A DNA stretch of 64,000 bases from Candidatus Latescibacterota bacterium (GTDB lineage: Bacteria; Latescibacterota; UBA2968), in the NCBI GenBank assembly GCA_965207885.1, contig OZ242311.1:1376001-1440000 (forward strand). The letters are read 5' to 3'. Shown here piece after piece: positions 2,442-23,502 of this stretch. The translations under genes and the position numbers were made by a program. A model generated the notes under the pieces. The model saw only the letters and a list, made by a program, of their open reading frames with translations, had not been told where the DNA came from and ran no database searches. The stretch's first letter is position 1; each line of letters begins with the position of its first letter.

Positions 2442-3321
2442 CCAGACATCTGTATTTGAAGCCACATCACTGACCAAAAAATTCGGTAACACCACAGCGC
2501 TCAACTCCGTAACGCTCTCTCTTGGGGCGCATCGCGTAATTGGATTGATCGGACGCAATGGCGGGGGCAAAACCACCTTAATTCAGCACATGATCGGCCT
2601 GTATTTGCCCACAGAGGGCACGTGTAAAACACTGGGACGTGCATGCGATCAATTGGGAGCAAACGAACTTTCGCGCATAGGCGTGGTACACCAGGAAAAC
2701 CGCTTTTTTGAATGGATGACCGTCGAACAGCATCTGCGCTACGTATCCTCATTTTACGAAACATGGGACCGCGACCTGGAAGCGCATCTGTTGCGCGAAC
2801 TCGAACTGGAAACCTCCGCGCGCGTGGGCAACCTATCTTCGGGTAACATGCAAAAACTGGGAATCATTCTGGCAGTGTGTCATCATCCCGAGCTATTGAT
2901 CTTAGATGAGCCAGTCAGTGGCCTGGACCCCATTGCCCGCGAGACACTGTTGAAATTTCTAATGACACTTCTGGCTGAAGATGAAAACACAATCGTGATC
3001 TCCTCCCATATTCTGCGGGACATCGAAAAAATAGTAGATTGGGTCGTATGCCTCGACGAAGGGACAATCAAAGCCGACAAATCACTGGACGACCTGCACC
3101 AGACTTATGCAAAGTGGACAGTCACAGGAAACAATCTACCCCAGCAATTTTCTGAACCTTATATCCTATCACAAACAGTGAACGGAGTACAGGCACAATT
3201 AATAGTCAATCAGACCCTGGGCAATGCAGATCAATTCAAGCGGACTTATCAGGCTAATATCACCAGTCAGTCCCTGAACCTCGACCAGCTATTTCCCATC
3301 CTGATTCGGGAGGGCGCATAA
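2431..3321 (+). CDS. ABC transporter ATP-binding protein (YtrB-like)
   Basis: Walker A GRNGGGKT, signature LSSGN, Walker B LLILDEP, SSH switch. Confidence 0.92.
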   Translation: MTHDQTSVFEATSLTKKFGNTTALNSVTLSLGAHRVIGLIGRNGGGKTTLIQHMIGLYLPTEGTCKTLGRACDQLGANELSRIGVVHQENRFFEWMTVEQHLRYVSSFYETWDRDLEAHLLRELELETSARVGNLSSGNMQKLGIILAVCHHPELLILDEPVSGLDPIARETLLKFLMTLLAEDENTIVISSHILRDIEKIVDWVVCLDEGTIKADKSLDDLHQTYAKWTVTGNNLPQQFSEPYILSQTVNGVQAQLIVNQTLGNADQFKRTYQANITSQSLNLDQLFPILIREGA

Positions 3322-4787
3322 TGGGTATTCTTCCATTTTTCACATTTTGGCGAAGCCCTGTTTACATTATCATCGCCTCTTGTGTAGGCTGGTTTCTCTT
3401 CCAAAACGCGTTGGCTTCCCACGCACATCGGTTCTCTGTATTCTTTTTATTTTTCTTTATTGAACTTTACGGTGGAATTATCGGCGATATTGTAGGAGAG
3501 AACCAGCATCGGATGCTCACCTGGACCCTACCACATTTTCGCAAGCGTCTGATGATCTGGTCAATAATTGTCGGACTATTTTCCGTTGTAGCGTGGACGA
3601 TTGTGCTGACTTATGCACCCCTCAATGCGTCCTGGTCAACGATTTTGCTCCTGAATATGTGCCTCTATTGTTTGGGATTTACCCTTTTTGGGGGGTGGAG
3701 TTTAGATACTAATCGCCCCGGGTTGATTTACAAGTGTCGAGCCCCCCTCTCATTGCTGGTGTTGGCATTAGCCTATTTGTGGCAAGAGGTGCTCGCTTTT
3801 GGAGAGCAACAAAAGTTGGGATTGGCTCTCATCGCATTCGCCATCACAATTGGAACTCATTATTTCGCCTTTAACCAGACAGCTTTTCGCAGTAGGCCAT
3901 TTTCTTTTTTCGTTGGTTCATTCTACTCGGGTTTTGATCCTCAAACCCGGGAGATTCAAAAGAATGCAATGAAGATGCGAAAGACGAGTACCAGGGTATG
4001 GCATCTCGATCACATCGGTACAGGCATCTACAATTGGCTGCGTGCCGGTCAGTATGAAAATTCTGGTCTGGGCGGGTGGAGATGGCCACTTTCCGCGCTC
4101 AGCGCAGCATTGGTAATGGTATTCATTTTTTTTAGCATGGAGACGAATTTCTTAGGATTGTTGGGTCAATCTCCCTACGATTTTGAGACCGTCTCGAAAA
4201 TGATTTATCACCTGATCTTTTATTTTAACCAGTTAGATCCTAAGATCGCCATTAATATATCGTTTTCTGTGTGCTTCGGCATTTATATGTTTATTTTTTT
4301 CCCTGCCTTTTTCTTAAAAAGAGGGTATGTCTATCCGCTTTCTCGCACCCAGCGGATGCGGATTCAGTATTGCGGTTTGCTGGTGCAAAATATTTCTTTT
4401 ATTGCCGCATCTATTCTGGTGTTGGGCGTTCTGGGCATCCTATCTGGAGCAAAGGTTGGGTTTGTGTCTGAAGGAAATATTTCTCTGGGAATACTTCGCG
4501 TTTTTGGATGGGCAGTGGTTCTGATACCGATATTTCAGTGGTTGCAAGTCAAATATGACCTGTATGAATTTCAAAGAATGCGGGGATATCGGTGGAGGTT
4601 CGCTCTTGGGTTACTGCTCATGATTTTGGGTATTGGAATCGGTAGTTTTACCAGTCTGATGCGTATCTGGTATCCCGACCTAGCACTGACCTATGAAGCG
4701 CCGGTTCTTTTGGTCTGTTTTATTCTTTTGCAATGGTTCCTGTTGGCCCGGCTCAAACGGTATTATGCCACACAGGACCTAATTTAG
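3321..4787 (+). CDS. Polytopic membrane protein, probable ABC permease (copy 1)
   Basis: Many hydrophobic segments; TAATG stop/start overlap with the ATPase gene; paralogous to 5764..7248. Confidence 0.75.
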   Translation: MGILPFFTFWRSPVYIIIASCVGWFLFQNALASHAHRFSVFFLFFFIELYGGIIGDIVGENQHRMLTWTLPHFRKRLMIWSIIVGLFSVVAWTIVLTYAPLNASWSTILLLNMCLYCLGFTLFGGWSLDTNRPGLIYKCRAPLSLLVLALAYLWQEVLAFGEQQKLGLALIAFAITIGTHYFAFNQTAFRSRPFSFFVGSFYSGFDPQTREIQKNAMKMRKTSTRVWHLDHIGTGIYNWLRAGQYENSGLGGWRWPLSALSAALVMVFIFFSMETNFLGLLGQSPYDFETVSKMIYHLIFYFNQLDPKIAINISFSVCFGIYMFIFFPAFFLKRGYVYPLSRTQRMRIQYCGLLVQNISFIAASILVLGVLGILSGAKVGFVSEGNISLGILRVFGWAVVLIPIFQWLQVKYDLYEFQRMRGYRWRFALGLLLMILGIGIGSFTSLMRIWYPDLALTYEAPVLLVCFILLQWFLLARLKRYYATQDLI

Positions 4788-4815
4788 ATTTAACCTTATC
4801 AACAAGGAAGAAGAG

Positions 4816-5654
4816 ATGACGTATCCAAATCTAAAGCAGTCTATTTGGCTGCTGGTATTATTGGTCCTGATTAGCGCAGGTTTGGGGATACCGGTTGCGA
4901 TCCTGGGAACGATTATTGACCAGCCGTTACACAAAAGTCCTTATGCTATCTGGCCAGTGACACTGGTGAGTTTTGTTTTGGTCGTACACTATGTTTTGCG
5001 TCGAACCGATCGAACCTGGGCTTCGTGGTCTGATATCATGCCCATAAAAGCCATTTCGTGGCAATTGCTACTGCCACTTGTGGTATCTATCCTTGGATTG
5101 CTGATCGTCTCTCTGGAATTGGGAAAAGTGATGATGTCTTTGGCCCCAACGCCGAGGGGGTGAAGGATACACTCCGTGGGTTGGTCGGCAAAAAAACCTC
5201 TTATTGGTTGGCCTTTTACGGCGCGGTGATTCAAACACCTATCATAGAAGAGGCACTTTTTAGAGGCATTATTGTAGGTGGTTTATTGGCGTATTGGTCA
5301 AAGTATCAGGCCGCAATTTGGTCGGCAATTTTGTTTGGCATATATCACTTGAACCCCGCGCAATTTCCCGTAGCCTTCATATTGGGGCTTGTATTCGCAT
5401 GGTGGATTATTCAAACGAGATCTTTATTACCTTGTATCCTGGGACACGCATTGAACAATTTTCTGGCTATTACATTAGCACGGTCGGGAATACCGGGCTT
5501 TAAAAATCCAAAGGCTCTGATCTTTCTGCCGTGGTGGGTGGTCGTGTGTGCCGTACTATTGGCCGCGATTGGGTTATGGTGGTTTTATCAAATAGCAAAA
5601 CGCGAAGAAACAGAACATCTTGAAGCGGAAGTTGAACCCGAGAGACATTGTTGA
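4816..5654 (+). pseudogene. CAAX/CPBP (Abi-family) intramembrane metalloprotease, split by a frameshift near 5152-5160
   Basis: N-terminal TM part is in 4816..5163; catalytic EEALFRG, FGIYH and HALNN motifs are in the other frame (to 5654). One extra base at ccgaggggg joins them. Confidence 0.75.
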
Positions 5655-5763
5655 AATTTCTAATGACACTTTTGACCGAGGACGAAAACACAACCGTGAT
5701 TTCGTCACATCATGCACTAAACCTCGACCAGCTATTTCCCATCCTGATACGGGAGGGCGCATA
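5637..5763 (+). repeat. Degenerate, internally deleted copy of the 3' part of the ABC ATPase gene
   Basis: 5637-5710 resembles 2936-3009 (gagacattgttgaaatttctaatgacactt...); 5717-5766 resembles 3274-3323 (aacctcgaccagctatttcccatcctgat..gggagggcgcataatg). Confidence 0.85.
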
Positions 5764-7248
5764 ATGGGTGTTCTGTCGTTTTTCACATTTTTGCGAAGCC
5801 CTGTTCACATTATCATCGCATTTTTTGCATGCCTGTTACTCGCTCATGTCTCCTGGACTGCCGACAGAGATCAGTTCTTTGTGTTTCTCGTATTTCTGCT
5901 ATTCTTCTTTAGTGGATTTTGGGGCTATGCTATCGGAGGTATTGTAGCAGAGAACCAGCATCGGAAGCTCACATGGACCCTGCCGCATTTTCGCAATCGT
6001 CTGATGATCTGGTCGATAATTGTCGGACTGTTTTCCGTAGTGGCGTGGACGATTATGCTGACATTCGCCCCCCTCAATGCGTCCTGGTCAACAATCTTGC
6101 TAATAAACTTGGGCTTTTATTGTTTCGGATTTGTCTGTACAGCGGGTTGGGATTTTGGTGTTTATCATTCTCTGTTGATCCAGGCATGTCAGACCATATT
6201 AATTTTTTTATTTCTCATATTGGCTTTTTTTTGGCAAGAGGTACTCGCTTTTGGAGAGCAACAAAAATTGGGGTTGGCTCTCATCGCATTCGCCATCACA
6301 ATTGCGGCTTATTATTTTTCGTTTAAGCAGACAACTTTTCGGAGAAAGCCTCTTTCCTTGTTATGGTCACTGCACTCGGTTTTTTATCCTCATATCTGGG
6401 AGATGTGGAAAAGGGATGCAATGAAGAGGCGAAAGCCGAGTACCAGGGTATGGCATCTCGATTACATCGGTACAGGCATCTTCAATTGGCTACGTGCGAG
6501 CCGATATGAAAATAGTGGTGGCACGCTATGGCTATGGCTGCTTCCCGGGTTTAGCGCAGTATTGGCAATGGCGTTCTATTCCATTGGCATGATGACGAAT
6601 GGATTCGGGATATTGGATCGGTCTCCCTACGATTTTGAGACTGTATTGATAACGATTTATCACATGATTTTTTATTTCGACCGGTTGGCCCCCAAGATCG
6701 CCATCAATATATCTCTTTCAGCGTTTTTCGGCATTTGGATATATACGGTGTATGTTTGGAGTCATCCTTTTTTCTTAAAAAGAGGGTATGTTTATCCGCT
6801 TTCTCGCACCCAGCGGATGTGGATTCGGTATTGTGGTTTTCTGGTGCAAAATATTTCTTTTTTTATAGTATCTATTCTGGTGTTGGGCGTTCTGGGCATA
6901 CTGGCAGGGGCAAAGGTCGGGTTTATGCATGAAGGGGATATTTCCTTGAGAATACTTTGTGTCTTTGGGTGGACAGTGGTTCTTTGGCCGATGTTTCAGT
7001 GGTTGCAAGTCAAATATCACCTGTATGAATTTCCAAGAACGCGGCGACAAGTATGGGGGATGGCTTTTCTGTTCTTGATCATGATTTTGGCTTGTGGAAT
7101 CGCTGGTTTTGCTGCTCTGATGCGTAATCTGCATCCCGACCTGGCACTGACCTATGAAGCGCCGATCCTTTTCGTCTCTTTTCTTCTCTTGCAATGGCTC
7201 CTATTGTCTCGGCTCAAACGGTATTACGCCACACAGGATCTGATTTAG
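5764..7248 (+). CDS. Polytopic membrane protein, probable ABC permease (copy 2)
   Basis: Shares blocks with copy 1 (ENQHR.LTWTLPHFR, FFLKRGYVYPLSRTQRM, RLKRYYATQDLI). Start ATG 5764 is in the same gggagggcgcataATG context. Confidence 0.8.
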   Translation: MGVLSFFTFLRSPVHIIIAFFACLLLAHVSWTADRDQFFVFLVFLLFFFSGFWGYAIGGIVAENQHRKLTWTLPHFRNRLMIWSIIVGLFSVVAWTIMLTFAPLNASWSTILLINLGFYCFGFVCTAGWDFGVYHSLLIQACQTILIFLFLILAFFWQEVLAFGEQQKLGLALIAFAITIAAYYFSFKQTTFRRKPLSLLWSLHSVFYPHIWEMWKRDAMKRRKPSTRVWHLDYIGTGIFNWLRASRYENSGGTLWLWLLPGFSAVLAMAFYSIGMMTNGFGILDRSPYDFETVLITIYHMIFYFDRLAPKIAINISLSAFFGIWIYTVYVWSHPFFLKRGYVYPLSRTQRMWIRYCGFLVQNISFFIVSILVLGVLGILAGAKVGFMHEGDISLRILCVFGWTVVLWPMFQWLQVKYHLYEFPRTRRQVWGMAFLFLIMILACGIAGFAALMRNLHPDLALTYEAPILFVSFLLLQWLLLSRLKRYYATQDLI

Positions 7249-7512: not shown

Positions 7513-10500
7513 ATGTTTGAAAACGGAACGATTCTCGACAACAAATACCAAATCCAAGCGCACCTGGGAACCGGGGGCATGGGCGAAGTCTATCGGGTGT
7601 TAGACCTGGAGCAAGGCCAGGAGTGCGCGCTCAAAATTTTGAATACCATGGTGGATCAGAAGGCTGTGTACCGCCGTTTTCACAGAGAATTTCAAGTATT
7701 GAACAGATTTCAGCACCCGCGCCTGGTGCGCACATACACCTGGGGCTTTGCCGAGGAGCGTCCCTATTTTACAATGGAATATTTGCCCGGAAAGACATTG
7801 GAAAAAATAATTGCCGATCGTACACATTCAGGGCAATTCCGGACGTCTCACTTTTTCGATTTGATACAACAAATTGCTGAAGGGTTGGCTTATATCCACG
7901 CGCAGGGTGCGGTGCACCGCGATCTCAAACCATCCAATATTATGGTTTTGAAAACAGAAAAGGGGATTGAGACCACGATCCTGGATATGGGACTGGCAAA
8001 ACTCAGGCATCTGCATAGCGTTTCCATTACGCAGACGGGCACAGCCATTGGCACGGCAGAATATATGTCGCCAGAGCAGGGTAAGGGCTTGTGGGTGGAC
8101 CATCGGTCAGATCTATACTCATTGGGCATAATTTTATACGAGATGCTCACGGGCGCACCGCCATTTTCTGGACAAAATCCAATATCCGTTATTATGAAGC
8201 ATATTCGAGAGTCACCGCCACCAATAGGTGAAGCCCATGTCGAGATTCCTACCCAGACGCAAGAAATTGTGCTGAGGTTGCTGGCAAAGGAACCTGTTGA
8301 TCGTTATCAGTCAGCAGAGGAATTGTTGCAGACCTTAAATGATGTGGCACCATTGAAGTTTGTGCTATCCGATGACGAGCAGCGCGATGTGCATAGAAAA
8401 GTGATGCGGCCGCAATTTATCGGGCGCGAATCCGAGATGAAGATGTTGCGCACGATGTTGCAGGATGTACAGGCTGGCGAGCAACGTGTGGTTCTGATCT
8501 CCGGTGAGTCTGGTGTGGGAAAAACGAGACTTATTGAGGAACTATTGGGCGATGCTTTGATCCATGATTTTCTGTGTTTGAAAGGGGCGAGCCAGGAAGA
8601 AGGTGGACAAATATACGGTGCGTTGATTGATGCTTTTCAAGGGAAGGTGGATTTGGTGGCAGAGTTACCCGACCCTGCAGAATCGGACAAGTTTTCTGTT
8701 ATGGAGCGTTGGTTGCAATTATTAAAACGTCTGCGACAGAAACAGCCCATTGTGTTGTGTTTGGAAGATATTCAATGGCTTGATGAATTGACCCTGGAAT
8801 TTTTGCAGTATGTATTGCGCGATCCAGAACCCTGCCCATTTTTGTTATACCTGACCTGTCGATGGTCTAACCTGGAACCCCTTCCAAAGGAAATTGAAAA
8901 ATTTATACACAGCAATGAACTTGCTAAGGCGACCCGGATCCAGTTGGAAAATCTACCCCGTGAAGAGGTGGGATATTTAGCGGCGTCCATGTTGGGTGAA
9001 ATATCCATACCACGAGATGCATTACAATCCCTATTCAGAGAAACAGGTGGACAACCCCTGTTTGTGGTGGAGGCTGTGAGGGCACTGGTGAGTGCCGATG
9101 TGGTTCGACAGAATGTGTCTGGCGATTGGCAGTGGGGAGAATTTCCAGAAACTTTGTTATCCAATGATTTTTCAGAGATTTTGTACAGACGTATAGCTAC
9201 TCTGCCTGCGGTACAACAGCGAGTGCTGGAATACGCGTGTGTTTTTCTGAGTGATTTTCCTTTTGAATTATTGGCTGCGGTTTGGCGCAGCGATGAGTTA
9301 GAATTGCTGGATGTACTGGACGAATTGATTGCAGAAGGGCTTTTGACAGCTTGTGGAGAGGATGAAGATCAATATCGATTTTCGCAGGAATTGTGTCGGC
9401 GGGCAATTTATGATCGCATGCAATATGTAAGACGGCGCCTATTACACCGAGAAATTGGCAATGCTTTGGAAAAGACGGAAGATGCAGAAGAACTGACGGA
9501 AGAATTGGCGGATCATTTTGCGGCGGCGGAAGAACGAGATAAAGCTATAAAATATATGCGCCTATCAGGCAAAAAAGCATTGGAAAAACACGCTTATCGC
9601 CAGGCAAGAATGCGGTTTGAGAGTGTCCGAAAGTGGACACCAGATGACGCTTTTGAATCACCTGCAGATACGATCATTTTTTTATGCGATTACGCAAACG
9701 TTTTACGTTGCTGTAGTCAGCACAATAGCGCACTGAAACTTTTAGACGAGGCAAAGGCGTTATTGCCTGCTGATCGCAAAGATTTAAAGGCGCGTATTTT
9801 AAATGACTTGGGTGAGATTCGTAGCGTAACTCATCATGGAGAAATTGCCGAAGAATATATGCTGAAGGCATTACAACTTTATCGTGAACTTGGTGATCTC
9901 GATGGGGAAATTCAGGCATTGGGAATTTTGGCTTATTTGTGCGACGTTTCTGGCCGGCACGAAGAAGCGATTGCATATATGCGTCGAGAAATAGAGAAAC
10001 GTCGTGTGCTGGAAGATCCGCAACAGAACACTTTTATACAAGGGCGGGAAGGTCAAGCTGCATTAATGGGATTTCGATTTGAGATAGCTAAGGGGTACTT
10101 GGAAACTGCTGTAAAGGCCTTTAAGCAACCTGGTCTGGAGCACCATCGCCTTTGGGCACTTAACTTGCTTCCAAGAGTGTATTTTTTTCTGGGTAATCTC
10201 AACCGGGCGGAAGCCATTTGCTATAAAGTCATTGGTGAGTGGCAGAAGCGAGGCGTTGTGTACTCGGAGGCAGTGAATCTTCTCTGGTTGGGAGAATTGG
10301 CACTGGAACGCGGTGATTTTGTCGAGGCATTGGAATATGCCGAGATCTCGATAGAGCGATTTTTGCAAACACCGCGAAAAGATTATGTCTATCGCGCTTA
10401 TGCGATTGCGGCAACGGCTACCGCGGGAATGGAAGATACAGAAGCAGCACTCGAATGGGGAGAAAAAGCCAGTGAAGGTGTACAGCAAACATCGAGCATG

Positions 10501-12333
10501 TACACGGGCATATTACCCTTGGTGCACTGCGGTATTGGTGTTGCTTTCGCCCAGGCAGGGCGGACTGCTGAGGCTGAAGAGGCTTTTAAGCAGGCGATTG
10601 AATGCCGGAGAGAATCCAAAGGCGATCACTGGGCGCGTGCATTGCTGATGGCAGGGGAGTTTTATCTCCAGCGCGATGATATGACAAGAGCTACGGAGTA
10701 TCTCGAAGCGGCAAAACAGGCGTTTGAAGAAATGGAAATGTCCTATTTTTTGGAGAAAACACAGGTGCTATTAAATCAATTATCTCACGACAAAGATGGC
10801 CGCGGCAATAATGTCGCACCCAGTTCTGAGATTTCAGTCGATACGTTGTCTGTTGATCGCTGGCGCTTGCTTTACGATGTGAGTCGGGAATTGACCACAG
10901 AGCGCGATGTCAAAGTGTTGTTGGATCGAACTTTGGGTAATTTACTGGCTGTTTATCCCGCAGAGCGAGTACTTATTGCAGTGAAAAATGAGACTCCAAA
11001 AAGCTTTGTGGTTGATGCAGTCCGTTACCACAATGTAGAAGCAGATGATGCGGAAGCACTGAGTCGGGGTATTATTCGTCGGGTTATTGAGACAAATGAA
11101 CCCATTTTGAGCGTTGATGCACAGGCAGACGACAGGCTAAATCAATATCAGAGCGTGATGGACTACAATATCCGGTCTGTATTGTGCGTATCCCTATTTC
11201 ATGTTAGCGAAGGTGTAATGGGTGCCCTGTATGTGGATCATCGCAGTATTGGCAACGCATTTTCTGAAGCAGATCAGACGTTTTTGCAGGCATTTGCGAA
11301 TCTGGTGGGGGTGGCACTGGTCAATGCGAAGATGTACGAACAATTAGAAGATAAAGCGCGATATTTGCAGCACCAAGTCGAAAGACGGTACCAGCTTGGC
11401 GATCTGGTCGGGCAAAGCGATGCGATGCAGACCATCTACTATCTTATCGAACGCGCTTCACAAAGTGATATACCCGTGCTTGTGCAAGGCGAAACAGGTA
11501 CGGGCAAAGAATTGGCTGCCCGTGCTATACACTACAATAGCAGACGCAAAGACCAGCCATTTTTGTCTCAAAATTGTGCTGCATTTTCGCCAGAGTTGTT
11601 GCAGAGCGAGTTGTTTGGGTACAAAAAAGGCGCATTTACAGGAGCGACTGAAGATCATAAGGGGATTTTTGAGGCGGCCAATGGGGGTACGGTTTTTTTA
11701 GATGAAATCGCCGATGCCTCGCCACAGTTGCAAAGGAGTTTGTTGCGGGTGTTACAAGAAGGAGAGGTGCGGCGTGTGGGAGAAACAGAGGATCGCGCAG
11801 TGGATGTACGCATTATTGCGGCGACCAATCAAGACTTAAAAAAAGAAGTAGAAAACAGATCCTTCCGTGAAGATTTGTATTACCGGTTGCATGTGATTCA
11901 GATCGATATGCCGCCTTTGCGAAAACGCATTGAAGATGTGCCATTATTGGCCGAACATCTGCTCACCCGAACAAAAGAAGAGTCAAACAAGTCGGTTGGA
12001 GGGCTGACAGTGGGTGCAATCAGGGCGCTCACAAGTTATGACTGGCCGGGCAATGTGCGCGAGTTGGAAAATAAGGTTCGACTTGCGGTTACATTGGCAG
12101 AAGAAGGTGGTGAAATCACGTCCGATTTGTTTTCAGAAGCTGTCGGTCACGCGGTGTCAGGTGCCTCTGTCGAATATCAAAAGCGTTTACGAGATCGTGT
12201 TCAGGAATATGAGAAACGGTTGATTATGGATGCGCTCGAGAAATGCGAGGGCAATATTACGCATACGGCTAAAGAACTGAGGATAACGCGTGCTGGCCTA
12301 CAAAAAAAGATCAATCGTTTGGGGTTGAAATAG
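7513..12333 (+). CDS. Multidomain signalling protein: Ser/Thr kinase - STAND-type AAA ATPase - TPR - GAF - sigma54 AAA+ activator - Fis HTH
   Basis: Kinase GTGGMGEVY, HRDLKPSN, DMG (for DFG), GTAEYMSPEQ; P-loop GESGVGKT with LEDIQW; helical repeats; GAF (RSVLCVSL...LYVD); GETGTGKE, GAFTGA, FLDEI, FREDLYYRL, WPGNVRELEN; C-terminal HTH. Confidence 0.9.
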   Translation: MFENGTILDNKYQIQAHLGTGGMGEVYRVLDLEQGQECALKILNTMVDQKAVYRRFHREFQVLNRFQHPRLVRTYTWGFAEERPYFTMEYLPGKTLEKIIADRTHSGQFRTSHFFDLIQQIAEGLAYIHAQGAVHRDLKPSNIMVLKTEKGIETTILDMGLAKLRHLHSVSITQTGTAIGTAEYMSPEQGKGLWVDHRSDLYSLGIILYEMLTGAPPFSGQNPISVIMKHIRESPPPIGEAHVEIPTQTQEIVLRLLAKEPVDRYQSAEELLQTLNDVAPLKFVLSDDEQRDVHRKVMRPQFIGRESEMKMLRTMLQDVQAGEQRVVLISGESGVGKTRLIEELLGDALIHDFLCLKGASQEEGGQIYGALIDAFQGKVDLVAELPDPAESDKFSVMERWLQLLKRLRQKQPIVLCLEDIQWLDELTLEFLQYVLRDPEPCPFLLYLTCRWSNLEPLPKEIEKFIHSNELAKATRIQLENLPREEVGYLAASMLGEISIPRDALQSLFRETGGQPLFVVEAVRALVSADVVRQNVSGDWQWGEFPETLLSNDFSEILYRRIATLPAVQQRVLEYACVFLSDFPFELLAAVWRSDELELLDVLDELIAEGLLTACGEDEDQYRFSQELCRRAIYDRMQYVRRRLLHREIGNALEKTEDAEELTEELADHFAAAEERDKAIKYMRLSGKKALEKHAYRQARMRFESVRKWTPDDAFESPADTIIFLCDYANVLRCCSQHNSALKLLDEAKALLPADRKDLKARILNDLGEIRSVTHHGEIAEEYMLKALQLYRELGDLDGEIQALGILAYLCDVSGRHEEAIAYMRREIEKRRVLEDPQQNTFIQGREGQAALMGFRFEIAKGYLETAVKAFKQPGLEHHRLWALNLLPRVYFFLGNLNRAEAICYKVIGEWQKRGVVYSEAVNLLWLGELALERGDFVEALEYAEISIERFLQTPRKDYVYRAYAIAATATAGMEDTEAALEWGEKASEGVQQTSSMYTGILPLVHCGIGVAFAQAGRTAEAEEAFKQAIECRRESKGDHWARALLMAGEFYLQRDDMTRATEYLEAAKQAFEEMEMSYFLEKTQVLLNQLSHDKDGRGNNVAPSSEISVDTLSVDRWRLLYDVSRELTTERDVKVLLDRTLGNLLAVYPAERVLIAVKNETPKSFVVDAVRYHNVEADDAEALSRGIIRRVIETNEPILSVDAQADDRLNQYQSVMDYNIRSVLCVSLFHVSEGVMGALYVDHRSIGNAFSEADQTFLQAFANLVGVALVNAKMYEQLEDKARYLQHQVERRYQLGDLVGQSDAMQTIYYLIERASQSDIPVLVQGETGTGKELAARAIHYNSRRKDQPFLSQNCAAFSPELLQSELFGYKKGAFTGATEDHKGIFEAANGGTVFLDEIADASPQLQRSLLRVLQEGEVRRVGETEDRAVDVRIIAATNQDLKKEVENRSFREDLYYRLHVIQIDMPPLRKRIEDVPLLAEHLLTRTKEESNKSVGGLTVGAIRALTSYDWPGNVRELENKVRLAVTLAEEGGEITSDLFSEAVGHAVSGASVEYQKRLRDRVQEYEKRLIMDALEKCEGNITHTAKELRITRAGLQKKINRLGLK

Positions 12334-12344
12334 ACGTTGAACAG

Positions 12345-12467
12345 GTGCATCCAACTGTATGCAGTAGTGCATCCAACTGTATGCACCTATCTATCCTTAT
12401 ATAATTCAAATAGTTATATTGATTTTCTTTAAATAAACGATTTAGAGGTGCATCCAATTGTATGCAC
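12345..12467. promoter_or_regulatory. Three copies of an imperfect palindrome, putative upstream activator (enhancer) sites
   Basis: GTGCATCCAACTGTATGCA at 12345-12363 and 12367-12385 (22-bp period); GTGCATCCAATTGTATGCAC at 12448-12467. Confidence 0.75.
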
Positions 12468-12576
12468 TTTCGCCAGAATTTCCCAAATTTAGCATAAATG
12501 ATTTTTTAATTTTATCTCTTTGCTTTTCAATCACTTGAGCACATTCAAGTGCTTTTTTTTGTGCTGAGACGATTTT

Positions 12577-12592
12577 GGGCACGGATCTTGCA
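12577..12592 (+). promoter_or_regulatory. sigma54 (-24/-12) promoter
   Basis: GGGCACGGATCTTGCA = GG-N10-GC, matching GGCAC-N5-TTGC; lies between the enhancer boxes and a strong RBS. Confidence 0.8.
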
Positions 12593-12647
12593 ATATGGAA
12601 AGGGCAAACAGTTATGGCGCAGGTTTTTTCCATTAAAGGAGGATAAC

Positions 12648-12827
12648 ATGACAACACGACGCAAGTTGACTTTGATTAATGGAGCAATAGATGCGAAAGG
12701 AGATATTCAAATATACCGATTCACGAATAGCCTTGAAATTGGGGGATGTCCATCTGGTTCGCCGGTTGTTCCTCCTGTCCCCTTTCCCGATGATGACGAT
12801 TGGGACGATTTTGAACAGGCTGAGTGA
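12648..12827 (+). CDS. Putative RiPP precursor peptide, 59 aa (ranthipeptide-like leader, single Cys, Pro-rich then acidic core)
   Basis: AAAGGAGG RBS before ATG 12648; MTTRRKLTLINGAIDAKGDIQIYRFTNSLEIGGCPSGSPVVPPVPFPDDDDWDDFEQAE; immediately upstream of an RRE-radical SAM-SPASM gene. Confidence 0.75.
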   Translation: MTTRRKLTLINGAIDAKGDIQIYRFTNSLEIGGCPSGSPVVPPVPFPDDDDWDDFEQAE

Positions 12828-12850
12828 TTTAATTTTAGGGAGTGTTTGAC

Positions 12851-14287
12851 ATGCTGTGCATTCAGAGATGCGAAATGCATCTTTTTCATACTGAAGAGCA
12901 AAAACAGCCGATTGTCTATCAGGTTGAGACTGGTCTGTTTTTTGCACTGGATACTCTTTTTCAGTCGATTTTAGAGTGCTGTGAGGGGATGTCTGCTTCA
13001 CAGGTTGTCCAGAGGTTGACCAATCAATACGAGGCAGAAGAAATTGTCGAGGCCATTGAGGAACTGTCTCAAGTGGGTTTGATTTCGGATGGTGCTTTGC
13101 CCCTAATATCCAATGTGCCGACGACAGAAGGGGTGGCAGCCTGTGGGGTTTCGCAGACAGATCGTTTGCAGGTGTCCTTGCACGTTTCGCATACGTGCAA
13201 TATTCAATGTGCGTATTGCTTTGCCCACGGTGGAGATTATGGCGGTAAGGCCATGCTGATGCAAATAGATGTTGCCGAGCAAGCCATACGCTGGATTGTC
13301 ACCGAGGCTCAGGTATTCGGACGGTGCCAGATTGATTTTTTTGGCGGAGAGCCGCTTCTGAATTTTCCATTGATGCAGGAGCTTGTTCCGTTTGCCAAAT
13401 CCCTATCAGCGCGATTGGGGGTGCAGGTTGGTTTTGGCATTGTGACCAATGGCACGTTGTTGACTGATGAGATGAGGCAATTTTTGGTTGATGAAAATTT
13501 TCAGATTAAGGTCAGCCTGGATGGGGGGCGTAAAACACAGGACCGCATTCGCAAGTTTCACAATGGTTCTGGGACTTATGATGTTGTGGCAAAGAATGTG
13601 GAGAAACTGACTGCTGAGGTGCCTGAGCGCGTGTATTTGCAGGCTGTTATGACAGCTTATGATATGGACGAGGATCAGATTGCCGATGCGTTGCGTTCTC
13701 TGGGTACTGAAAACGCGCTTGTTGGTCCGGCTGTTGTCTCTCCCGATGCGCCTTATGCGATTGGGGAAGAACACATACCCGTTTTGAAGGAACAAATTCA
13801 CAAGCGGAGTAGGCGTGCGCTCAAAGCTATTTTAAGCGGTGAAGAGAGTGAAGATAAAGAGTTTGATCCGCGGATTCAAAAACTTTTGACGCGCCAAAAA
13901 TCCTGTCATGGGTGTCTGGGTGGTAAGCAGTATCTGGCTATTGCAGCAGATGGGTCGATTTATTTTTGCTCGAGTTTGGCCGATGCGCCCGAGTTTAAGA
14001 TGGGTGATGTGTTTGCGGGTATTGATCGCGAAAAGCAGCAGCATTTTGACGCGCAGTTCAATGTGAATAATCGCCCTGAGTGCAAGACGTGCTGGGCGCG
14101 CAACTTATGTGGTGGCGGGTGTCTTTGGGAGGCGCGGACAACAACGGGTGACCCAATGTATCCAAATCCAGTTTCTTGTGAACAGACGCGTTATCGCTAT
14201 GAATTGGCGATGGAGATGTGTATGGAGATTGCAGAAGCGGATGCGTCTTTGTTACAGCGACGATATGATCTGGAAGTGGTATCATAA
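12851..14287 (+). CDS. Radical SAM/SPASM peptide maturase with N-terminal RRE-like domain (CteB/PapB/QhpD-like)
   Basis: CNIQCAYC (CX3CX2C), FFGGEPLL, VTNGTLL, SLDG; SPASM CHGCLGG...FC...CKTCWARNLCGGGC...C; N-terminal ~80-aa strand/helix region ending IEELSQVGLI. AGGGAG precedes ATG 12851. Confidence 0.88.
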   Translation: MLCIQRCEMHLFHTEEQKQPIVYQVETGLFFALDTLFQSILECCEGMSASQVVQRLTNQYEAEEIVEAIEELSQVGLISDGALPLISNVPTTEGVAACGVSQTDRLQVSLHVSHTCNIQCAYCFAHGGDYGGKAMLMQIDVAEQAIRWIVTEAQVFGRCQIDFFGGEPLLNFPLMQELVPFAKSLSARLGVQVGFGIVTNGTLLTDEMRQFLVDENFQIKVSLDGGRKTQDRIRKFHNGSGTYDVVAKNVEKLTAEVPERVYLQAVMTAYDMDEDQIADALRSLGTENALVGPAVVSPDAPYAIGEEHIPVLKEQIHKRSRRALKAILSGEESEDKEFDPRIQKLLTRQKSCHGCLGGKQYLAIAADGSIYFCSSLADAPEFKMGDVFAGIDREKQQHFDAQFNVNNRPECKTCWARNLCGGGCLWEARTTTGDPMYPNPVSCEQTRYRYELAMEMCMEIAEADASLLQRRYDLEVVS

Positions 14288-14323: not shown

Positions 14324-14376
14324 GGCATCCAAATAGGGATTAACACTCTGTTAGATGCCATTTATTTTGTTTCTTT
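14324..14376 (+). terminator. Possible intrinsic terminator after the radical SAM gene
   Basis: Imperfect stem GGCATCCAAATAGGG / CTCTGTTAGATGCC followed by ATTTATTTTGTTTCTTT. Confidence 0.4.
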
Positions 14377-14404
14377 GGGTGGGAGTCTCGACAGATTGTT
14401 GGTG

Positions 14405-15397
14405 ATGGGAGAAATATATCAATCAAAAAAATCCGGCCTCAATAAATGGCCGCTCATTGGACAGCATTCCTCACTCTTAGACGTGCAAAAGCGCGCGTAC
14501 CGCGTGGCAAATAGCGAATTGCCCGTCAACATCAGTGGAGAAACTGGCACGGGTAAGGAATTGCTCGCCCGTTATGTTCACGGCATTAGCCACCGCAACA
14601 GGGGACCATTTGTAACCGTTGACTGCGGTCTGCTCTCTTCTGAAATGTCGCGCAGCGAGTTATTTGGACATGTTCGAGGTGCTTTTACTGGCGCCAGCCA
14701 AACGCGCATCGGACTGGTTGAATCTGCCCAAGGCGGTACGCTATTCCTCGATGAAGTAGGCGAATTGCCTGCCAACCTTCAGTTGCAATTGCTACGCCTG
14801 GTACAGGAACAGGAATTTCGTCGCGTAGGCGAAGCATCCATGCGCCGGTCCAACGTGCGCCTGATCACTGCGACACACTGTAACTTGAAAAAAATGGTGC
14901 GAAAAGGGACTTTCCGAGAAGATCTCTATTACCGCTTAACTGTCGTACCTCTACATTTGCCACCCTTGCGGAAGCGACTGAGCGACTTGCCTCTTTTAAT
15001 CACGCATTTTTGCAAAAGTATGAAAGAATACAATCGCGCATTTTCCCCCGAAGTAATTCAAAGGATGTCGCATTACGCCTGGCCCGGCAATGTTCGGGAA
15101 CTACAACACGAAGTCGCCCGATTGATGGTCATGAGCGAAGGTAAAATTATCCGCGTATCCGATCTGCACCCTCGCATTCGAGGATCCAAAGCCGAGGTCG
15201 ATGTATTTGACCTCCCGTTTAAAGAAGCCAGACAACTGGCGAACAGCCGGTTTATGCGGGAGTATCTCGACAGAGCCTTGAAGCGAACACAGGGCAATGT
15301 AACCCAGGCAGCGCAACAATGCGGGATTGGCCGACAGTATTTCCAATTGCGCATGTCTGAATACGGTCTAAAGTCGGCATCTTACAAACAGAAATAA
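14405..15397 (+). CDS. sigma54-dependent activator (AAA+ and Fis HTH) with no N-terminal sensory domain
   Basis: LIGQHS near the N-terminus, GETGTGKE, GAFTGA, FLDEV, FREDLYYRL, WPGNVREL, GNVTQAAQQCGIGRQ HTH. Confidence 0.88.
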   Translation: MGEIYQSKKSGLNKWPLIGQHSSLLDVQKRAYRVANSELPVNISGETGTGKELLARYVHGISHRNRGPFVTVDCGLLSSEMSRSELFGHVRGAFTGASQTRIGLVESAQGGTLFLDEVGELPANLQLQLLRLVQEQEFRRVGEASMRRSNVRLITATHCNLKKMVRKGTFREDLYYRLTVVPLHLPPLRKRLSDLPLLITHFCKSMKEYNRAFSPEVIQRMSHYAWPGNVRELQHEVARLMVMSEGKIIRVSDLHPRIRGSKAEVDVFDLPFKEARQLANSRFMREYLDRALKRTQGNVTQAAQQCGIGRQYFQLRMSEYGLKSASYKQK

Positions 15398-15413: not shown

Positions 15414-15449
15414 AAAAAAACGTCAATGGAAAAATCCATTGACGTTTTT
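15414..15449. terminator. Intrinsic terminator, potentially bidirectional
   Basis: Perfect stem CGTCAATGGA-AAAA-TCCATTGACG flanked by an A-run and a T-run. Confidence 0.8.
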
Positions 15450-15476
15450 CTTTGCAGGGTGTTTCTTGAGCGTATC

Positions 15477-18400
15477 ATGCAATACATCGCCGACATACAC
15501 CTGCACTCGCGTTTTGCCCGCGCAACCAGCAAAACCCTGAACCCCGAAAACCTGTATCGGTGGAGCCTCATCAAAGGCCTGACAGTAGTAGGCACCGGAG
15601 ATTTCACCCATCCGGTATGGTTTGACGAACTGCGCGATCAACTCGAACCCGCCGAAGAAGGGCTATATCAACTGCGATCAGACCTCAGGCGAGGTATAGA
15701 CGCCGAGTTGCCACAAGCCTGTCGCGGACAAATGCGGTTTGTGCTCTCGGTCGAAATCAGTCTCATATACAAAAAGAACGACAAAACCAGAAAAATACAT
15801 CACGTCGTCACAATGCCGAGTTTTGACGCTGCGGCGCGATTAAATGCCCGACTCGGCGCAATAGGCAACCTGAAATCCGACGGACGCCCCATTCTTGGCC
15901 TGGACAGCCGGGACCTGGTAGAGATCTGTCTGGAAGCCTGTGACGAGGTACTCTTCATACCCGCGCACATCTGGACCCCTCATTTTGCTGTCCTGGGCGC
16001 GAGTTCCGGGTTTGACACCCTGGAAGAATGTTTTGAAGACATGCTCCCCCACATCTTCGCCGTAGAAACCGGCCTATCCTCCGACCCACCGATGAACTGG
16101 CGCCTATCCATGCTGGACAACTACGCAATCGTCTCCAATTCAGACGCGCATTCCCCACAAAAACTCGCCCGCGAAGCCACCTGCTTTAACACAGACCTAT
16201 CATTCCGCGGAATGTATAACGCATTAAAAGACCGCGACCCAACGCGCTTTACGGGCACCCTGGAATTCTATCCCGAAGAAGGCAAATATCACTTTGACGG
16301 ACACAGAAAATGCGACATATGCTGGAAACCCGTACAAACCCTCGACGCAGACGAAATCTGCCCGGTATGTGGCCGCAAATTGACCGTTGGCGTACTCCAC
16401 CGCGTTGAAAAACTCGCAGACCGCGCAGAAGGCGACCGCCCCGACGTGGTAATGCCCTTTGAAAACCTGATCCCACTGCCGGAAATCATCGGCTCAGTCC
16501 TCCAGGTGGGACCCACCAGCAAGCGCGTACAAACCGTGTACGAACAAATGCTATCAACACACGGAGCAGAATTGAAAATCTTGCGCGAACTGCCCATCGA
16601 AGAAATCGCCAAAACAGGAGACTTCCTCATCGCCGAAGGCATTCGACGCATGCGCGAAGGGGAAGTTCACATAGACCCGGGATACGACGGCGTGTACGGA
16701 AAAATTCAAGTCTTCTCCGACGAAGACCGCGCACGCCTGAGCGGGCAGGAAACGCTGTTTCACATACCAGCCGGGGAGCCTTCGAAAGAGAAAGCAGAGA
16801 ACGCGAGCCTGGACAAGAGCACAGAAAACTCAATAGCCAAAGATTCTTCTTTCACACTTCCCACTTCACTCTTCCCACTTCTCGACCCCCACCAGCAAGC
16901 AGCCGTAACAACGGAAAAAGGTCCCGTCATCGTAACAGCGGGACCCGGCACCGGAAAAACCCGGGTCCTCACCCATCGCGTAATCGACTTGATCCAAAAC
17001 CGCGGCGTATCACCCGCTTCTGTGATGGCCGTAACATTCACCAATCGCGCCGCAACTGAAATGTGGGAACGGATCGTATCCCTATCCTCAGGAGGCGAAG
17101 AACTGGTCCCCATGCGCGTGGGCACATTCCACCGCCTATCACTGGACCTCCTGCGAGAATACGCCCCCGAGCGAATGGGCGCAATAGCTGACCGAGGAGA
17201 AGCCCGCACCGTCTTACAGGAAGCAATCGCCGACATCGACACCGAAACATCGGTCGATGACGCCCTCTCCCAAATCTCGCTATGCAAAGCTACAGGACAG
17301 GAAATACCCGACATCACCGACACCGAACTCCAAACCATTTACACCAATTATCAACATCGCCTCACCACTTATGGCCTGATGGACTTTGACGACATCTTAC
17401 TCATACTCCACGACGTACTCTCCGGTGACATTTTACAAACAATCCAGGCGCGATTTACCCACGTACTCGTCGATGAATTTCAGGACGTCAACGCCGTACA
17501 GTACGCACTGATTCAAAAACTGTCCGGAGATGGATCGGGCCTCTTCGTCATCGGCGATCCCGATCAAGCCATCTACGGTTTTCGGGGCGCGAGCGCGGGA
17601 TATTTCGCGCAATTAAAAGCGGATTATCCCGGATCAAACGAAGTAATCCTGCAGCACACATATCGCTCCACCCCACAGATCATCTCCGCAGCATCCAGCC
17701 TGCTTCGCGGACGATCGTATGTCCCCGTGCGAGAAAATGGCCCAAATCTGAGAGCCTTATCCACACCGGGCGAAACCGGCGAAGGCATCGCCATCGTAGA
17801 AGAAATCTCCCGAATGGTCGGCGGTGCAGACTTATTGCAAGCCAACGAAGAAGGCAAACGCAGCCTGGACGACTTCGCCGTATTATTCCGTACCGGACGA
17901 CAAGCAGACGCCCTGGAAACGTGCTTCTTACAGGCCGGGATCCCCTACCGCGTCGTCGGGCAGAAAAGCTATCTGGACGCAGCTTCGGTACAGCACGCCC
18001 TATCGTTTTTTAAGTGCGTCCTGAGAGATATTTCCAGTGCCCCAACCACCAGAGATATAATCGACCTCCTCTCCATCCCCGCATTTGACCCTGGCAGAGA
18101 AGCGCGCGCAACAATGCGTCGTCAGGCTCAAAACACCGCGCTATCTGACACTGTACAGGAAAAATTGGACGCCGCGATGGAAGCCGTAGATCGCTTCCGC
18201 AATGAAACATCTCACCTATCGCCTTCCGAACGCATAGCAAAATGGGCAGAAGAATTTGCGACATCAGACGACATCGACATCGAACGACTGAGCCTGTTGG
18301 CTCAAGGCGTGGATTCCATCGCAGAGCTATTGGAAATCATCACCCTGGGACAGGATGGCGACTTTGTGCGTCGTGGAAAAATTGCGCGGCCCGAAGCCGT

Positions 18401-18707
18401 CACACTCATGACCTTGCATGCGTCCAAGGGCCTGGAATTCCCCGTGGTATTTATCTGTGGGGTTGAGGAAGGATTAATCCCGCACGCCAATGCGGATATC
18501 GAAGAAGAGAAACGCCTATTTTTCGTCGGCATAACCCGCGGACAAGACGAAGTGATCTTGACCCGCGCCCGAAGCCGCAGGCGATTTGGCGAACGCATCG
18601 CGCCCAAAATATCGCGCTTTGTAGCCGACATCCCCGAAGAAGTGATCGACTTTGTCGATCTGCGAACCGAAAGACGCAAACCCGCCGAACAACTATCCTT
18701 ATTTTAA
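15477..18707 (+). CDS. Endonuclease Q-like PHP domain fused to a UvrD/Rep (SF1A) helicase
   Basis: ADIHLHSRF, GTGDFTHP, PAHIWTP, ETGLSSD, NSDAHS, GKYHFDGHRKC, CPVCG, PGYDGVYG; then AGPGTGKT, VDEFQD, GDPDQAIYGFRGA, TLHASKGLEF, FFVGITR. Ends QLSLF. Confidence 0.85.
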   Translation: MQYIADIHLHSRFARATSKTLNPENLYRWSLIKGLTVVGTGDFTHPVWFDELRDQLEPAEEGLYQLRSDLRRGIDAELPQACRGQMRFVLSVEISLIYKKNDKTRKIHHVVTMPSFDAAARLNARLGAIGNLKSDGRPILGLDSRDLVEICLEACDEVLFIPAHIWTPHFAVLGASSGFDTLEECFEDMLPHIFAVETGLSSDPPMNWRLSMLDNYAIVSNSDAHSPQKLAREATCFNTDLSFRGMYNALKDRDPTRFTGTLEFYPEEGKYHFDGHRKCDICWKPVQTLDADEICPVCGRKLTVGVLHRVEKLADRAEGDRPDVVMPFENLIPLPEIIGSVLQVGPTSKRVQTVYEQMLSTHGAELKILRELPIEEIAKTGDFLIAEGIRRMREGEVHIDPGYDGVYGKIQVFSDEDRARLSGQETLFHIPAGEPSKEKAENASLDKSTENSIAKDSSFTLPTSLFPLLDPHQQAAVTTEKGPVIVTAGPGTGKTRVLTHRVIDLIQNRGVSPASVMAVTFTNRAATEMWERIVSLSSGGEELVPMRVGTFHRLSLDLLREYAPERMGAIADRGEARTVLQEAIADIDTETSVDDALSQISLCKATGQEIPDITDTELQTIYTNYQHRLTTYGLMDFDDILLILHDVLSGDILQTIQARFTHVLVDEFQDVNAVQYALIQKLSGDGSGLFVIGDPDQAIYGFRGASAGYFAQLKADYPGSNEVILQHTYRSTPQIISAASSLLRGRSYVPVRENGPNLRALSTPGETGEGIAIVEEISRMVGGADLLQANEEGKRSLDDFAVLFRTGRQADALETCFLQAGIPYRVVGQKSYLDAASVQHALSFFKCVLRDISSAPTTRDIIDLLSIPAFDPGREARATMRRQAQNTALSDTVQEKLDAAMEAVDRFRNETSHLSPSERIAKWAEEFATSDDIDIERLSLLAQGVDSIAELLEIITLGQDGDFVRRGKIARPEAVTLMTLHASKGLEFPVVFICGVEEGLIPHANADIEEEKRLFFVGITRGQDEVILTRARSRRRFGERIAPKISRFVADIPEEVIDFVDLRTERRKPAEQLSLF

Positions 18708-22114: not shown

Positions 22115-22363
22115 TCACGCATCCAACGCTTGCTCAAACGCCTCAAGACTGGACACCTGAATCGCCGTACGATGCAACTTCTTCAGGCGTTGCAAATCTT
22201 CAATAGCGGCAATGCGAGCAGATAAGGGATCTGTTTCAGGTAGATCGAATCGAATTTCCAGCACCTCGATGATATCGGCAATAGCGCGGTCTCTCTCCCC
22301 GCGCTCAATGCCCTGCTTCATAATGTATTGTGTAAACGATGACTCGCGCATAATGGCATCCAT
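22115..22363 (-). CDS. Possible in-frame intragenic small protein (82 aa, RpnS-like antitoxin)
   Basis: Minus strand reads ACAGGAGGGTCTTATGGATGCC: AGGAGG then ATG, in frame with the Rpn-like ORF. Confidence 0.5.
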   Translation of the reverse strand: MDAIMRESSFTQYIMKQGIERGERDRAIADIIEVLEIRFDLPETDPLSARIAAIEDLQRLKKLHRTAIQVSSLEAFEQALDA

Positions 22364-22996
22364 AAGACCCTCCTGTAATAGAATACGATTGATCAGTATC
22401 GGATCATACTCTAACCCACTCAATATCATCAACCTGCCCAAAAAGTCAACCTTTATTGATTCATCCACCCGCAACGCATCCGTCGCGTCAACACAGTGAC
22501 GCAACCACGCCTCTGAATTTATCCCAACAGGATGTTTCATCAAGGGGACGAATGGAAACAAGCCCGAAGGTCCGCCATCAAGAATATCCTGTCCCTCTAT
22601 TTCACTCAGCCGAATCACTGTGTATTCTATCAAAACGTCACGGCCGGATATTTCATGAATAAAGTGTCCCGGATCGCGCCGACCTGCACTGCGCCGCAAG
22701 TAGATCACACTGGAGTAAATCGGCAGGTCGTGACGCTCAATCGCACGTATAATATAGCCCGCCATGCGGAGCGGCATAGATGGATCGTCAATCGTTTGAA
22801 ACTCGTGATGCACCAATGCCTCCTTGCCCGCAATATGGACGCGGATAAGGCTATCGGTATGTCGTGTATCAACCGTGCTTTGCTCCGTATCGAGTATGTC
22901 CAGGACTTCTACATCGTCCTGTTCAAGCGTGAGGCGGATAAAGTCTTTGGGATAGGTCTGGATCAGATCTTTGGAGACAGAGTCATATTCGGCCAT
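22115..22996 (-). CDS. Rpn/YhgA-like PD-(D/E)XK nuclease (putative transposase family) with a small C-terminal helical domain
   Basis: YDSVSKDL, RHTDSL, HHEFQT, MPLRMAGY, VIYL, and EVLEIRF C-terminal pattern. Confidence 0.7.
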   Translation of the reverse strand: MAEYDSVSKDLIQTYPKDFIRLTLEQDDVEVLDILDTEQSTVDTRHTDSLIRVHIAGKEALVHHEFQTIDDPSMPLRMAGYIIRAIERHDLPIYSSVIYLRRSAGRRDPGHFIHEISGRDVLIEYTVIRLSEIEGQDILDGGPSGLFPFVPLMKHPVGINSEAWLRHCVDATDALRVDESIKVDFLGRLMILSGLEYDPILINRILLQEGLMDAIMRESSFTQYIMKQGIERGERDRAIADIIEVLEIRFDLPETDPLSARIAAIEDLQRLKKLHRTAIQVSSLEAFEQALDA

Positions 22997-23331: not shown

Positions 23332-23502
23332 TTATTTTGATTTAGATAGTGTTAGTGTCACATCTCTCACTGCCAGTAAAAACGCCTCTATATCCCCATT
23401 TTGCTCATAATCCTCAAGCGCAACGGAAAGATATATCTTCGCGCCTTCTGGATCACGTAGCTGCTCAATATGATAGTCTTTGAAGTTTAGATAGTTACTC
23501 AT
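23332..23502 (-). pseudogene. Truncated addiction-module antidote-like protein (HTH missing)
   Basis: FKDYHIEQLRDPEGAKIYLSVALEDYEQNGDIEAFLLAVRDV, then a stop where the HTH would be expected. Confidence 0.55.

Follow-up and report, generated by a model that had tools for sequence, protein, structure and literature searches.

Ranthipeptide-type cassettes are widespread, and those parts of PMC12993501 and PMC8326336 that deal with them describe their biological role as largely unknown. In the section concerned, the latter argues that SCIFF-type two-gene cassettes are not antimicrobials, and the former already reports clusters flagged by antiSMASH as 'ranthipeptide' in sponge Latescibacterota MAGs. 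The chemistry of QhpD and of the SCIFF maturases has been described, and the portions of PMC8326336 and PMC9413430 that treat these enzymes assign Cys-Asp and Cys-Glu thioethers to PapB and QhpD. For PapB, the corresponding portion of PMC9413430 gives Cys-Asp thioethers and acceptance of C-Xn-D motifs with n = 0-6.

We analyse here a locus in a window of 64,000 nucleotides (the whole stretch of DNA under analysis, in whose numbering all positions are given), in which a regulator gene, a small precursor-like gene and the gene of a radical SAM (rSAM)/SPASM enzyme follow one another on the plus strand. With the SCIFF system of Clostridia (CteA-CteB; structures 5wgg and 5why) the locus has in common a peptide gene and an rSAM/SPASM gene with no transporter or peptidase, a leader that is here modelled on an N-terminal RRE and, behind the leader, a Cys as presumed donor; the SCIFF maturase is also the best family match of the enzyme (267 bits), and 5wgg/5why is the nearest solved structure (E 4e-62). 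However, where SCIFF peptides carry six Cys the peptide here carries one, its core is Pro-rich and acidic and shows no detectable precursor homology, its enzyme stays under the 425-bit family cut-off, it comes with a dedicated sigma-54 regulator, and it belongs to Latescibacterota rather than Firmicutes. The enzymes of the PapB/freyrasin and QhpD/QhpC systems are related as well (229 and 264 bits), and here too a Cys could serve as donor and an invariant Asp run as acceptor. Freyrasin, however, has six C-X3-D motifs, and the repeated C-X3-D/E pattern is not found in our peptide, whose single Cys allows just one C-X13-D. QhpC, for its part, is a subunit of an enzyme whose dehydrogenase genes lie close by; no dehydrogenase genes flank the cassette here.

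The regulator has its own nearest relatives. Its N-terminal kinase, AAA_16 and TPR parts match the TOMM kinase/cyclase fusion family (TIGR03903) at 288 bits, which is below the 706-bit cut-off, and its output consists of GAF, sigma-54 AAA+ and HTH domains rather than a cyclase. Gram-positive bacteria offer a more distant likeness in their pherotype-polymorphic peptide signalling loci and their TPR peptide receptors (agr, com, RRNPP): there as here a variable peptide and a sensor segment appear to change together between conserved flanks, several distinct copies occur per genome, and a TPR segment is a candidate reader of the peptide. The differences are that the receptor here has a kinase-STAND-GAF-sigma-54 architecture, that the peptide is very probably an rSAM substrate, and that the variable segments are not contiguous. 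In the main texts of the literature we found no description of the precursor family, of the regulator or of their coupling.

Results

The precursor gene and its family

The open reading frame at 12648-12827 (ATG at 12648, TGA at 12825-12827) encodes a product of 59 residues, with RKLTLING at residues 5-12, IGG followed by Cys34, and a Pro-rich and acidic tail after that, just as an earlier sequence-only reading had it. A GGAGG at 12638-12642 lies 5 nt before the ATG, and both the start codon and this Shine-Dalgarno sequence are kept in 33 of 33 loci. A word-indexed search of 5.8 billion proteins yields a family of 101 proteins of 53-83 residues, the query counted, with a weakest E of 9.6e-10. 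Estimated from 33 gene copies, dN/dS comes to 0.18 over residues 1-12, 0.41 over residues 13-33, 0.95 over residues 35-40, 0.12 over residues 41-47 and 0.21 over residues 48-59, and the Cys34 codon shows zero non-synonymous changes, yet TGT and TGC both occur. Judged by this comparison of sequences, the frame is a genuine gene, far beyond chance, with purifying selection on leader and tail.

Pfam and NCBIfam hold no family for the peptide, and the NCBIfam precursor models match none of 52 aligned family members. An exhaustive profile search of 1.84 billion representatives returned 14 matches at E <= 0.001 and turned up no distant relative: the eight weaker matches that were inspected belong to this very family or are frameshifted or truncated versions of its members. 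Another match is a protein of 1159 residues. Four family members among the metagenome proteins (P0112, P0114, P0117 and P0118) look frameshifted: either a normal leader runs into unrelated sequence or it is the other way round. These may be decayed copies or assembly errors.

The family has a fixed layout: the leader, some 33 residues long and carrying a KLTLING that hardly varies, is followed by a Cys, a variable 6-mer, VPPxPFP and a run of Asp, after which W-D-D-F-D is usual. Within the leader (residues 1-33; 12648-12746) the N-terminal motif is the most conserved part, with [KR]L.L[IV]NG kept in 100 of the 101 homologues and K6, L7, L9, N11 and G12 invariant. Cys34 (12747-12749) is present in all 101, and 85 of them have one Cys in total, so that the conservation of leader motif and Cys on which the sequence-only reading had made its case depend is borne out; by analogy with substrates of related enzymes Cys34 would be the cross-link donor. 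Beyond the Cys, every one of the 101 homologues keeps [VI]P..[PS]FP and then at least three Asp within the next four residues. VPPxPFP (residues 41-47) and the Asp run with its acidic tail (48-59) occupy, together with the stop codon, 12768-12827; here P42, P45, F46, P47 and D49 are invariant, the distance from the Cys to the first Asp is 14 residues in 88 of 101 homologues, and the tail contains W-D-D and F-D-Q triplets.

Between these conserved parts stands the 6-mer at residues 35-40 (PSGSPV here; 12750-12767). Its length is six residues in 99 of the homologues and five in the other two, and it takes 81 distinct forms among the 101. It is also patterned, with Pro at C+2 in 72 of 99 and Gly at C+3 in 70, a hydrophobic residue at C+5 and a small one at C+6. 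Its dN/dS of 0.95 would fit neutral drift as well as diversification.

Several finer proposals about the peptide can be judged from the same alignment. The GG before the Cys, proposed as a possible site of leader cleavage, occurs in 31 of 101 homologues only and is thus not a conserved cleavage site; the S/T-P motifs, put forward as substrates of the neighbouring kinase, occur in 15 of 101 only and inside the variable 6-mer, and so are not a conserved kinase target. Trp52, proposed as a possible cross-link residue, is present in 88 of 101 homologues and so is not invariant. The leader had also been likened to that of SCIFF precursors. For this comparison we took 13 SCIFF precursors from Firmicutes loci of the rSAM search (SCIFF-like frames were found in 13 of 17 loci scanned); hhalign of these against the 52 family members gave a probability of 0.06 and an E of 0.73, so homology is not detectable and the likeness exists at the level of motifs only. 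The single Cys in 85 of 101 homologues and the lack of an NCBIfam match among the 52 members likewise set the family apart from SCIFF precursors, whose core of about 25 residues has six conserved Cys. A leader that was kept while the core was replaced is a plausible history of the peptide.

The maturase and its predicted recognition of the leader

The rSAM gene (12851-14287) starts 23 nt downstream of the peptide gene, and in 31 of 33 cassettes 21-29 nt separate the stop codon of the peptide gene from the first codon of the rSAM gene. By Pfam and NCBIfam its product of 478 residues is a radical SAM/SPASM maturase with a putative N-terminal PqqD-like RRE, the PqqD-like match scoring 19.8 bits, under the cut-off of 23.4. 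NCBIfam ranks the SCIFF maturase first (267 bits against its cut-off of 425), then QhpD (264), the nif11 rSAM (251), a ScfB-related orphan (244) and PapB (229), with further families at no more than 176 bits. The top five belong to the thioether-maturase clade (SCIFF/QhpD/PapB), and the earlier suggestion of a precursor-like peptide beside an rSAM gene agrees well with best matches that are thioether-forming SCIFF, QhpD, nif11 and PapB maturases. Since the enzyme stays below the curated cut-off of every NCBIfam family matched, its reaction may differ. In 28 rSAM sequences none of the Fe-S ligand Cys varies, neither the three of CX3CX2C (C116/C120/C123) nor the seven of the SPASM part.

For a model of the complex we combined the enzyme, with an alignment of 28 rows, and the peptide, with one of 52 rows, and added SAM and three 4Fe-4S clusters. 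The model scores 0.88 against 0.02 for the best control; of the solved complexes 58 of 80 come up to that mark, of the mismatched pairs 2 of 110. Its runs share at least 39% of contacts, and partner pLDDT is at least 47. In it leader residues 4-15 and 18-26 sit on rSAM residues 28-37, 68-75, 345-348 and 454-478, so that the leader motif is predicted to lie on the N-terminal RRE, in line with the leader/RRE module of the sequence-only reading, and KLTLING (residues 6-12) would be the recognition motif of the leader. The model places only the leader with confidence and leaves the core, Cys34 included, unplaced. The pass may also reflect the likeness of the modelled enzyme to that of 5wgg, a structure which we take to contain a bound leader. 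That the 59-residue peptide is a real substrate of this enzyme we regard as very probable.

Regulator and control region

The regulator gene (7513-12333) encodes 1606 residues, in which Pfam and NCBIfam find a Ser/Thr kinase, AAA_16 (a STAND-type NTPase), TPR, GAF, a sigma-54 AAA+ domain and HTH_8. Its translation contains HRDLKPSN and GAFTGA, and the catalytic motifs of the kinase are intact. Downstream of this gene lie, on the plus strand, three copies of a 19-nt palindromic site (12345-12363, 12367-12385 and 12448-12466), with 0 expected in 100 shuffles; the fourth match of the scan is the third site read in reverse. They are conserved in an alignment of 33 upstream regions and are likely to be upstream activator sites for the HTH of the regulator. 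A sigma-54 promoter follows at 12578-12592 (GGCAC-N5-TTGCA, with GGCAC at -24 and TTGCA at -12), and every one of 33 cassettes has the pattern GG[CT]A[CT]-N5-xTGC at a distance of 58-80 nt ahead of the start codon of its peptide gene. Between activator sites and promoter there is a conserved, terminator-like hairpin followed by a T run (12532-12551), which may terminate the regulator transcript. An Rfam search of 12300-12900 gave chance-level matches only.

The genome also encodes rpoN, so that all parts of a sigma-54 operon are found: the promoter, an activator with GAFTGA and HTH_8, the three palindromes and the sigma factor gene. From these elements we consider it quite probable that the neighbouring regulator exerts sigma-54 control over the peptide-rSAM operon. 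As the peptide family comes with its own regulator and promoter, its function would be testable with a simple reporter.

Two studies of sponges provide metatranscriptome libraries with contigs over the rSAM gene. One of these contigs (X18 record 1) covers 12720-13190, that is, the 3' part of the peptide frame into the rSAM gene, and another (X20 record 15), which comes from a relative about 89% alike, covers 12780-14275. Because such libraries may contain DNA, these bridging contigs lend weak support to transcription. The stretch 12274-12569 upstream of the promoter has no contig in four RNA-library runs; these being contigs, they carry no evidence on transcript starts.

Copies and distribution of the cassette

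The cassette of regulator, peptide and rSAM genes (7513-14287) is present three times in the genome, and the DNA block shared by the three is exactly 7513-14287. Relative to the copy in the window, the other two show protein identities of 80% for the regulator, 66% for the peptide and 91-94% for the enzyme. Among species-level genomes we counted 39 loci, in MAGs titled Latescibacterota and a few titled otherwise (one Poribacteria), often with two or three loci per genome. Across the cassettes compared, the repeated unit contains no transporter, exporter, importer, peptidase or immunity gene; with no exporter, importer or peptidase in the cassette, the route of any signalling is not evident.

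What follows the rSAM gene varies. In 12 loci, the window included, it is a sensor-less sigma-54 activator and a PHP-UvrD helicase. The activator of the window (14375-15397, plus strand) has 340 residues with AAA+ and HTH domains only by Pfam and neither a sensor nor a receiver domain, and it lies outside the repeated block, which ends at 14287; the PHP-domain UvrD-like helicase comes next at 15426-18707. In 15 other loci the rSAM gene is followed by a methyltransferase-like gene for 300 residues, which also stands behind the other two cassettes of this genome. This protein (7561-8460 of locus L002) has no Pfam match; a language-model look-alike search finds it to resemble Methyltransf_24-like proteins (score 0.96, to be read as a lead only), and in these 15 cassettes it may serve as a tailoring enzyme.

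Two deeper clades also combine a sigma-54 regulator, a small frame with an L-x-(L/P)-I-N motif and a conserved Cys, and an rSAM gene. In the first (L033-L036) the regulator is seen at full length, rSAM identity is about 51%, and a regular expression finds the sigma-54 promoter in 4 of 4 loci. In the other (L038 and L058) we see the C-terminal end of the regulator only, rSAM identity is 42-45%, and the same expression finds a promoter in 0 of 2 loci. The Asp run is absent in both, and thus Asp cannot be a universal acceptor. A scan of metagenome contigs gave 16 loci; since just two came from the main clade, both short, the sample for the analysis of co-variation could not be enlarged.

Apparent co-variation of sensor and core

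Four classes of peptide core were distinguished: A (CP.G), B (C.P[YF].F with VPL), C (C.PG) and D (C.P.P). For 28 cassettes we then counted how often the label changes on trees built from single segments of the regulator. The class definitions date from after inspection of the data, and 16 sliding windows were tested. On the tree of regulator residues 761-1080 the class changes 8 times (14.6 when shuffled, 0/1000) and synteny 7 times (7.7 when shuffled). On the trees of residues 561-760, GAF, sigma-54 and HTH, the class changes 11-13 times and synteny 3-4 times (7.6 when shuffled, at most 10/1000). The sliding windows localise the class signal to residues 701-920, with 8-9 changes against about 14.4 shuffled (0/300). 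This segment (residues ~701-920, the start of a TPR/MalT-like sensor; 9613-10272) is also the least conserved stretch of the regulator, with a mean pairwise identity of 0.64-0.72 against 0.81 for the whole protein. A partial Mantel test of TPR against peptide gives r 0.32 (0/500). The independent-pairs test has 4 contrasts for class A and 2 for class B, all in the same direction, too few for more than p 0.25-0.5; in this test class C shows no association with TPR type.

On these trees the regulator is a mosaic, whose TPR segment follows the class of the peptide core and whose remainder follows genomic position. The copy in the window illustrates this: its DNA at 9763-10360 is nearest to class-A cassettes, and for that at 10663-11860 the nearest are class-B cassettes that share its genomic position. 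Its peptide is most similar to that of locus L027. The rSAM gene behaves differently again. As a carrier of peptide specificity the enzyme was rejected, its tree showing no association with peptide class or synteny; this tree follows the genome (21 changes against 27.1 shuffled, 0/500). In the window the segment 13063-14287 of the rSAM gene is closest to the genome's own paralogues (0.93-0.95), and for 13063-14287 and 7513-7800 alike the own paralogues are nearer (0.93-0.96) than the same-position copies in other genomes. This pattern suggests gene conversion between the three cassettes of the genome.

Discussion

Our analysis points to the following sequence of events. The N-terminal RRE of the enzyme would bind the conserved KLTLING of the leader, as modelled. 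The enzyme would then act on Cys34, which would most likely be joined by a single thioether to some side-chain carbon in the invariant Asp run that starts 14 residues further on; going by the enzyme's relatives, the result would be a ring of about 15 residues that encloses the variable 6-mer and the rigid VPPxPFP. The peptide-rSAM operon would be read from the sigma-54 promoter that is seen in the sequence, presumably with the upstream kinase-STAND-TPR-GAF-sigma-54 protein acting on the three palindromes. Regulator, peptide and enzyme would form one unit, of which the genome has three. To RRE recognition, Cys34 chemistry, sigma-54 transcription and the three-gene unit, taken together, we give slightly more credence than not. 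Beyond this, the enzyme copies would be nearly interchangeable while the variable core and the TPR sensor (~701-920) change together, and the outcome would be a self-contained, pherotype-like signalling or feedback unit.

How is the single Cys modified? By analogy with the relatives of the enzyme, formation of a thioether at Cys34 is fairly probable. Asp as the acceptor of this link is a more tentative proposal, which we would not call probable. The spacing here is C-X13-D (n = 13), beyond the n = 0-6 shown for PapB in the pertinent part of PMC9413430, and in the portions of the literature that treat such links we found no precedent for a C-Xn-D thioether with n = 13; a ring closed at the Asp run would far exceed in size those shown for PapB. 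One may also imagine a different rSAM reaction, for instance an anSME-like conversion of Cys34 to formylglycine, or a C-C cyclophane at a tail Trp or Phe, in which case the Cys would be a cluster ligand only. It is true that every family match of the enzyme lies below its cut-off, and that it also matches anSME (E 1.9e-32) and the cyclophane maturases YhhB (E 5e-25) and FxsB (E 2e-20); moreover, the Pro at C+2 in 72 of 99 homologues recalls the sulfatase motif C-x-P, and the tail offers its W-D-D and F-D-Q triplets. However, these matches reach at most 113 bits against 229-267 bits for the thioether clade, the tail Trp is absent in 13 of 101 homologues, and anSME acts on whole sulfatases, not on leader peptides, so we hold such a reaction to be improbable. 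Still less can be said for the full model of the sequence-only reading, in which a SCIFF leader is retained, the core is swapped, the peptide is cleaved at GG and its SP motifs are phosphorylated by the neighbouring kinase. The SCIFF maturase is indeed the best match of the enzyme, the 13 Firmicutes SCIFF precursors also have a basic/hydrophobic N-terminal motif and often GGC, and the kinase has its catalytic motifs; but the hhalign probability of 0.06 and the scarcity of GG (31/101) and of S/T-P in the core (15/101) tell against it, as does the location of the SP positions in a segment with a dN/dS of 0.95, and we judge it very unlikely. Under the thioether reading, a single donor Cys makes for a minimal substrate, on which the chemistry of the enzyme would be easy to read.

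What could make one segment of the regulator follow the peptide while the remainder follows its place in the genome? Since the variable core and the TPR sensor change together, the peptide, probably in its modified form, is most likely what the sensor reads, and we put this forward as a tentative reading that falls somewhat short of probable. The co-variation might instead come only from the fast-evolving TPR and peptide segments escaping a gene conversion that homogenises their surroundings, with no physical recognition involved. Such conversion does seem to be active, since paralogues within the genome are the closest matches of the rSAM gene and of the 5' end of the regulator gene. In addition, the regulator varies most in its TPR stretch, and the strict test of contrasts is not significant. 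Against this, other poorly conserved stretches of the regulator (residues 241-280, 1081-1120 and 1521-1600) do not follow the peptide class, and about 2.4 kb that follow synteny separate the two co-varying segments. On balance we find an escape from conversion rather doubtful as the whole explanation. A third view takes the peptide to be exported for antimicrobial action or competition, its core caught in an arms race and the regulator sensing some outside cue. The 81 distinct 6-mers among 101 homologues and the several cassettes per genome would suit it, as would the antiSMASH ranthipeptide clusters in sponge Latescibacterota MAGs noted in the part of PMC12993501 cited above. The repeated unit, however, is free of transporter, peptidase and immunity genes, a TPR segment that follows the peptide class is not what one would expect from an external cue, and SCIFF-type two-gene cassettes have been argued, in the relevant section of PMC8326336, to be non-antimicrobial; we consider this unlikely.

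If the peptide is what the sensor reads, one can go further and picture private peptide signalling channels of a hitherto undescribed kind, in which an interchangeable rSAM enzyme cyclises a one-Cys peptide, and the TPR of the cassette's own kinase-STAND-sigma-54 activator reads the resulting loop and drives the peptide promoter. Each symbiont genome would then have two or three mutually distinct channels, and loop and sensor would be exchanged together between lineages in the manner of pherotypes. As a complete picture this is speculative and, we think, rather unlikely to hold in every part. Should the link between loop and TPR be real, there would be a direct connection between a radical-SAM peptide and a STAND/sigma-54 receptor of the cytoplasm, in a phylum that is uncultured and associated with sponges, and the cassettes would amount to a natural set of orthogonal peptide-sensor pairs. 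Such a pairing would be a new signalling architecture.

Two other regions of the window may be mentioned. Upstream of the cassette, 1959-7248 contains genes for a GntR regulator and an ABC ATPase and then for two paralogous large membrane proteins of 488 and 542 residues, with a CPBP/Rce1-like intramembrane protease between them; the 488-residue protein has no Pfam match, and the whole looks like a duplicated membrane module outside the repeated cassette. Further downstream, on the minus strand, the gene run at 22115-30371, with proteins of 270, 422, 1115 and 304 residues, looks like a defence or mobile island; its 270-residue protein has by eye an SGGKDS motif, which we take to recall PAPS-reductase-type enzymes.
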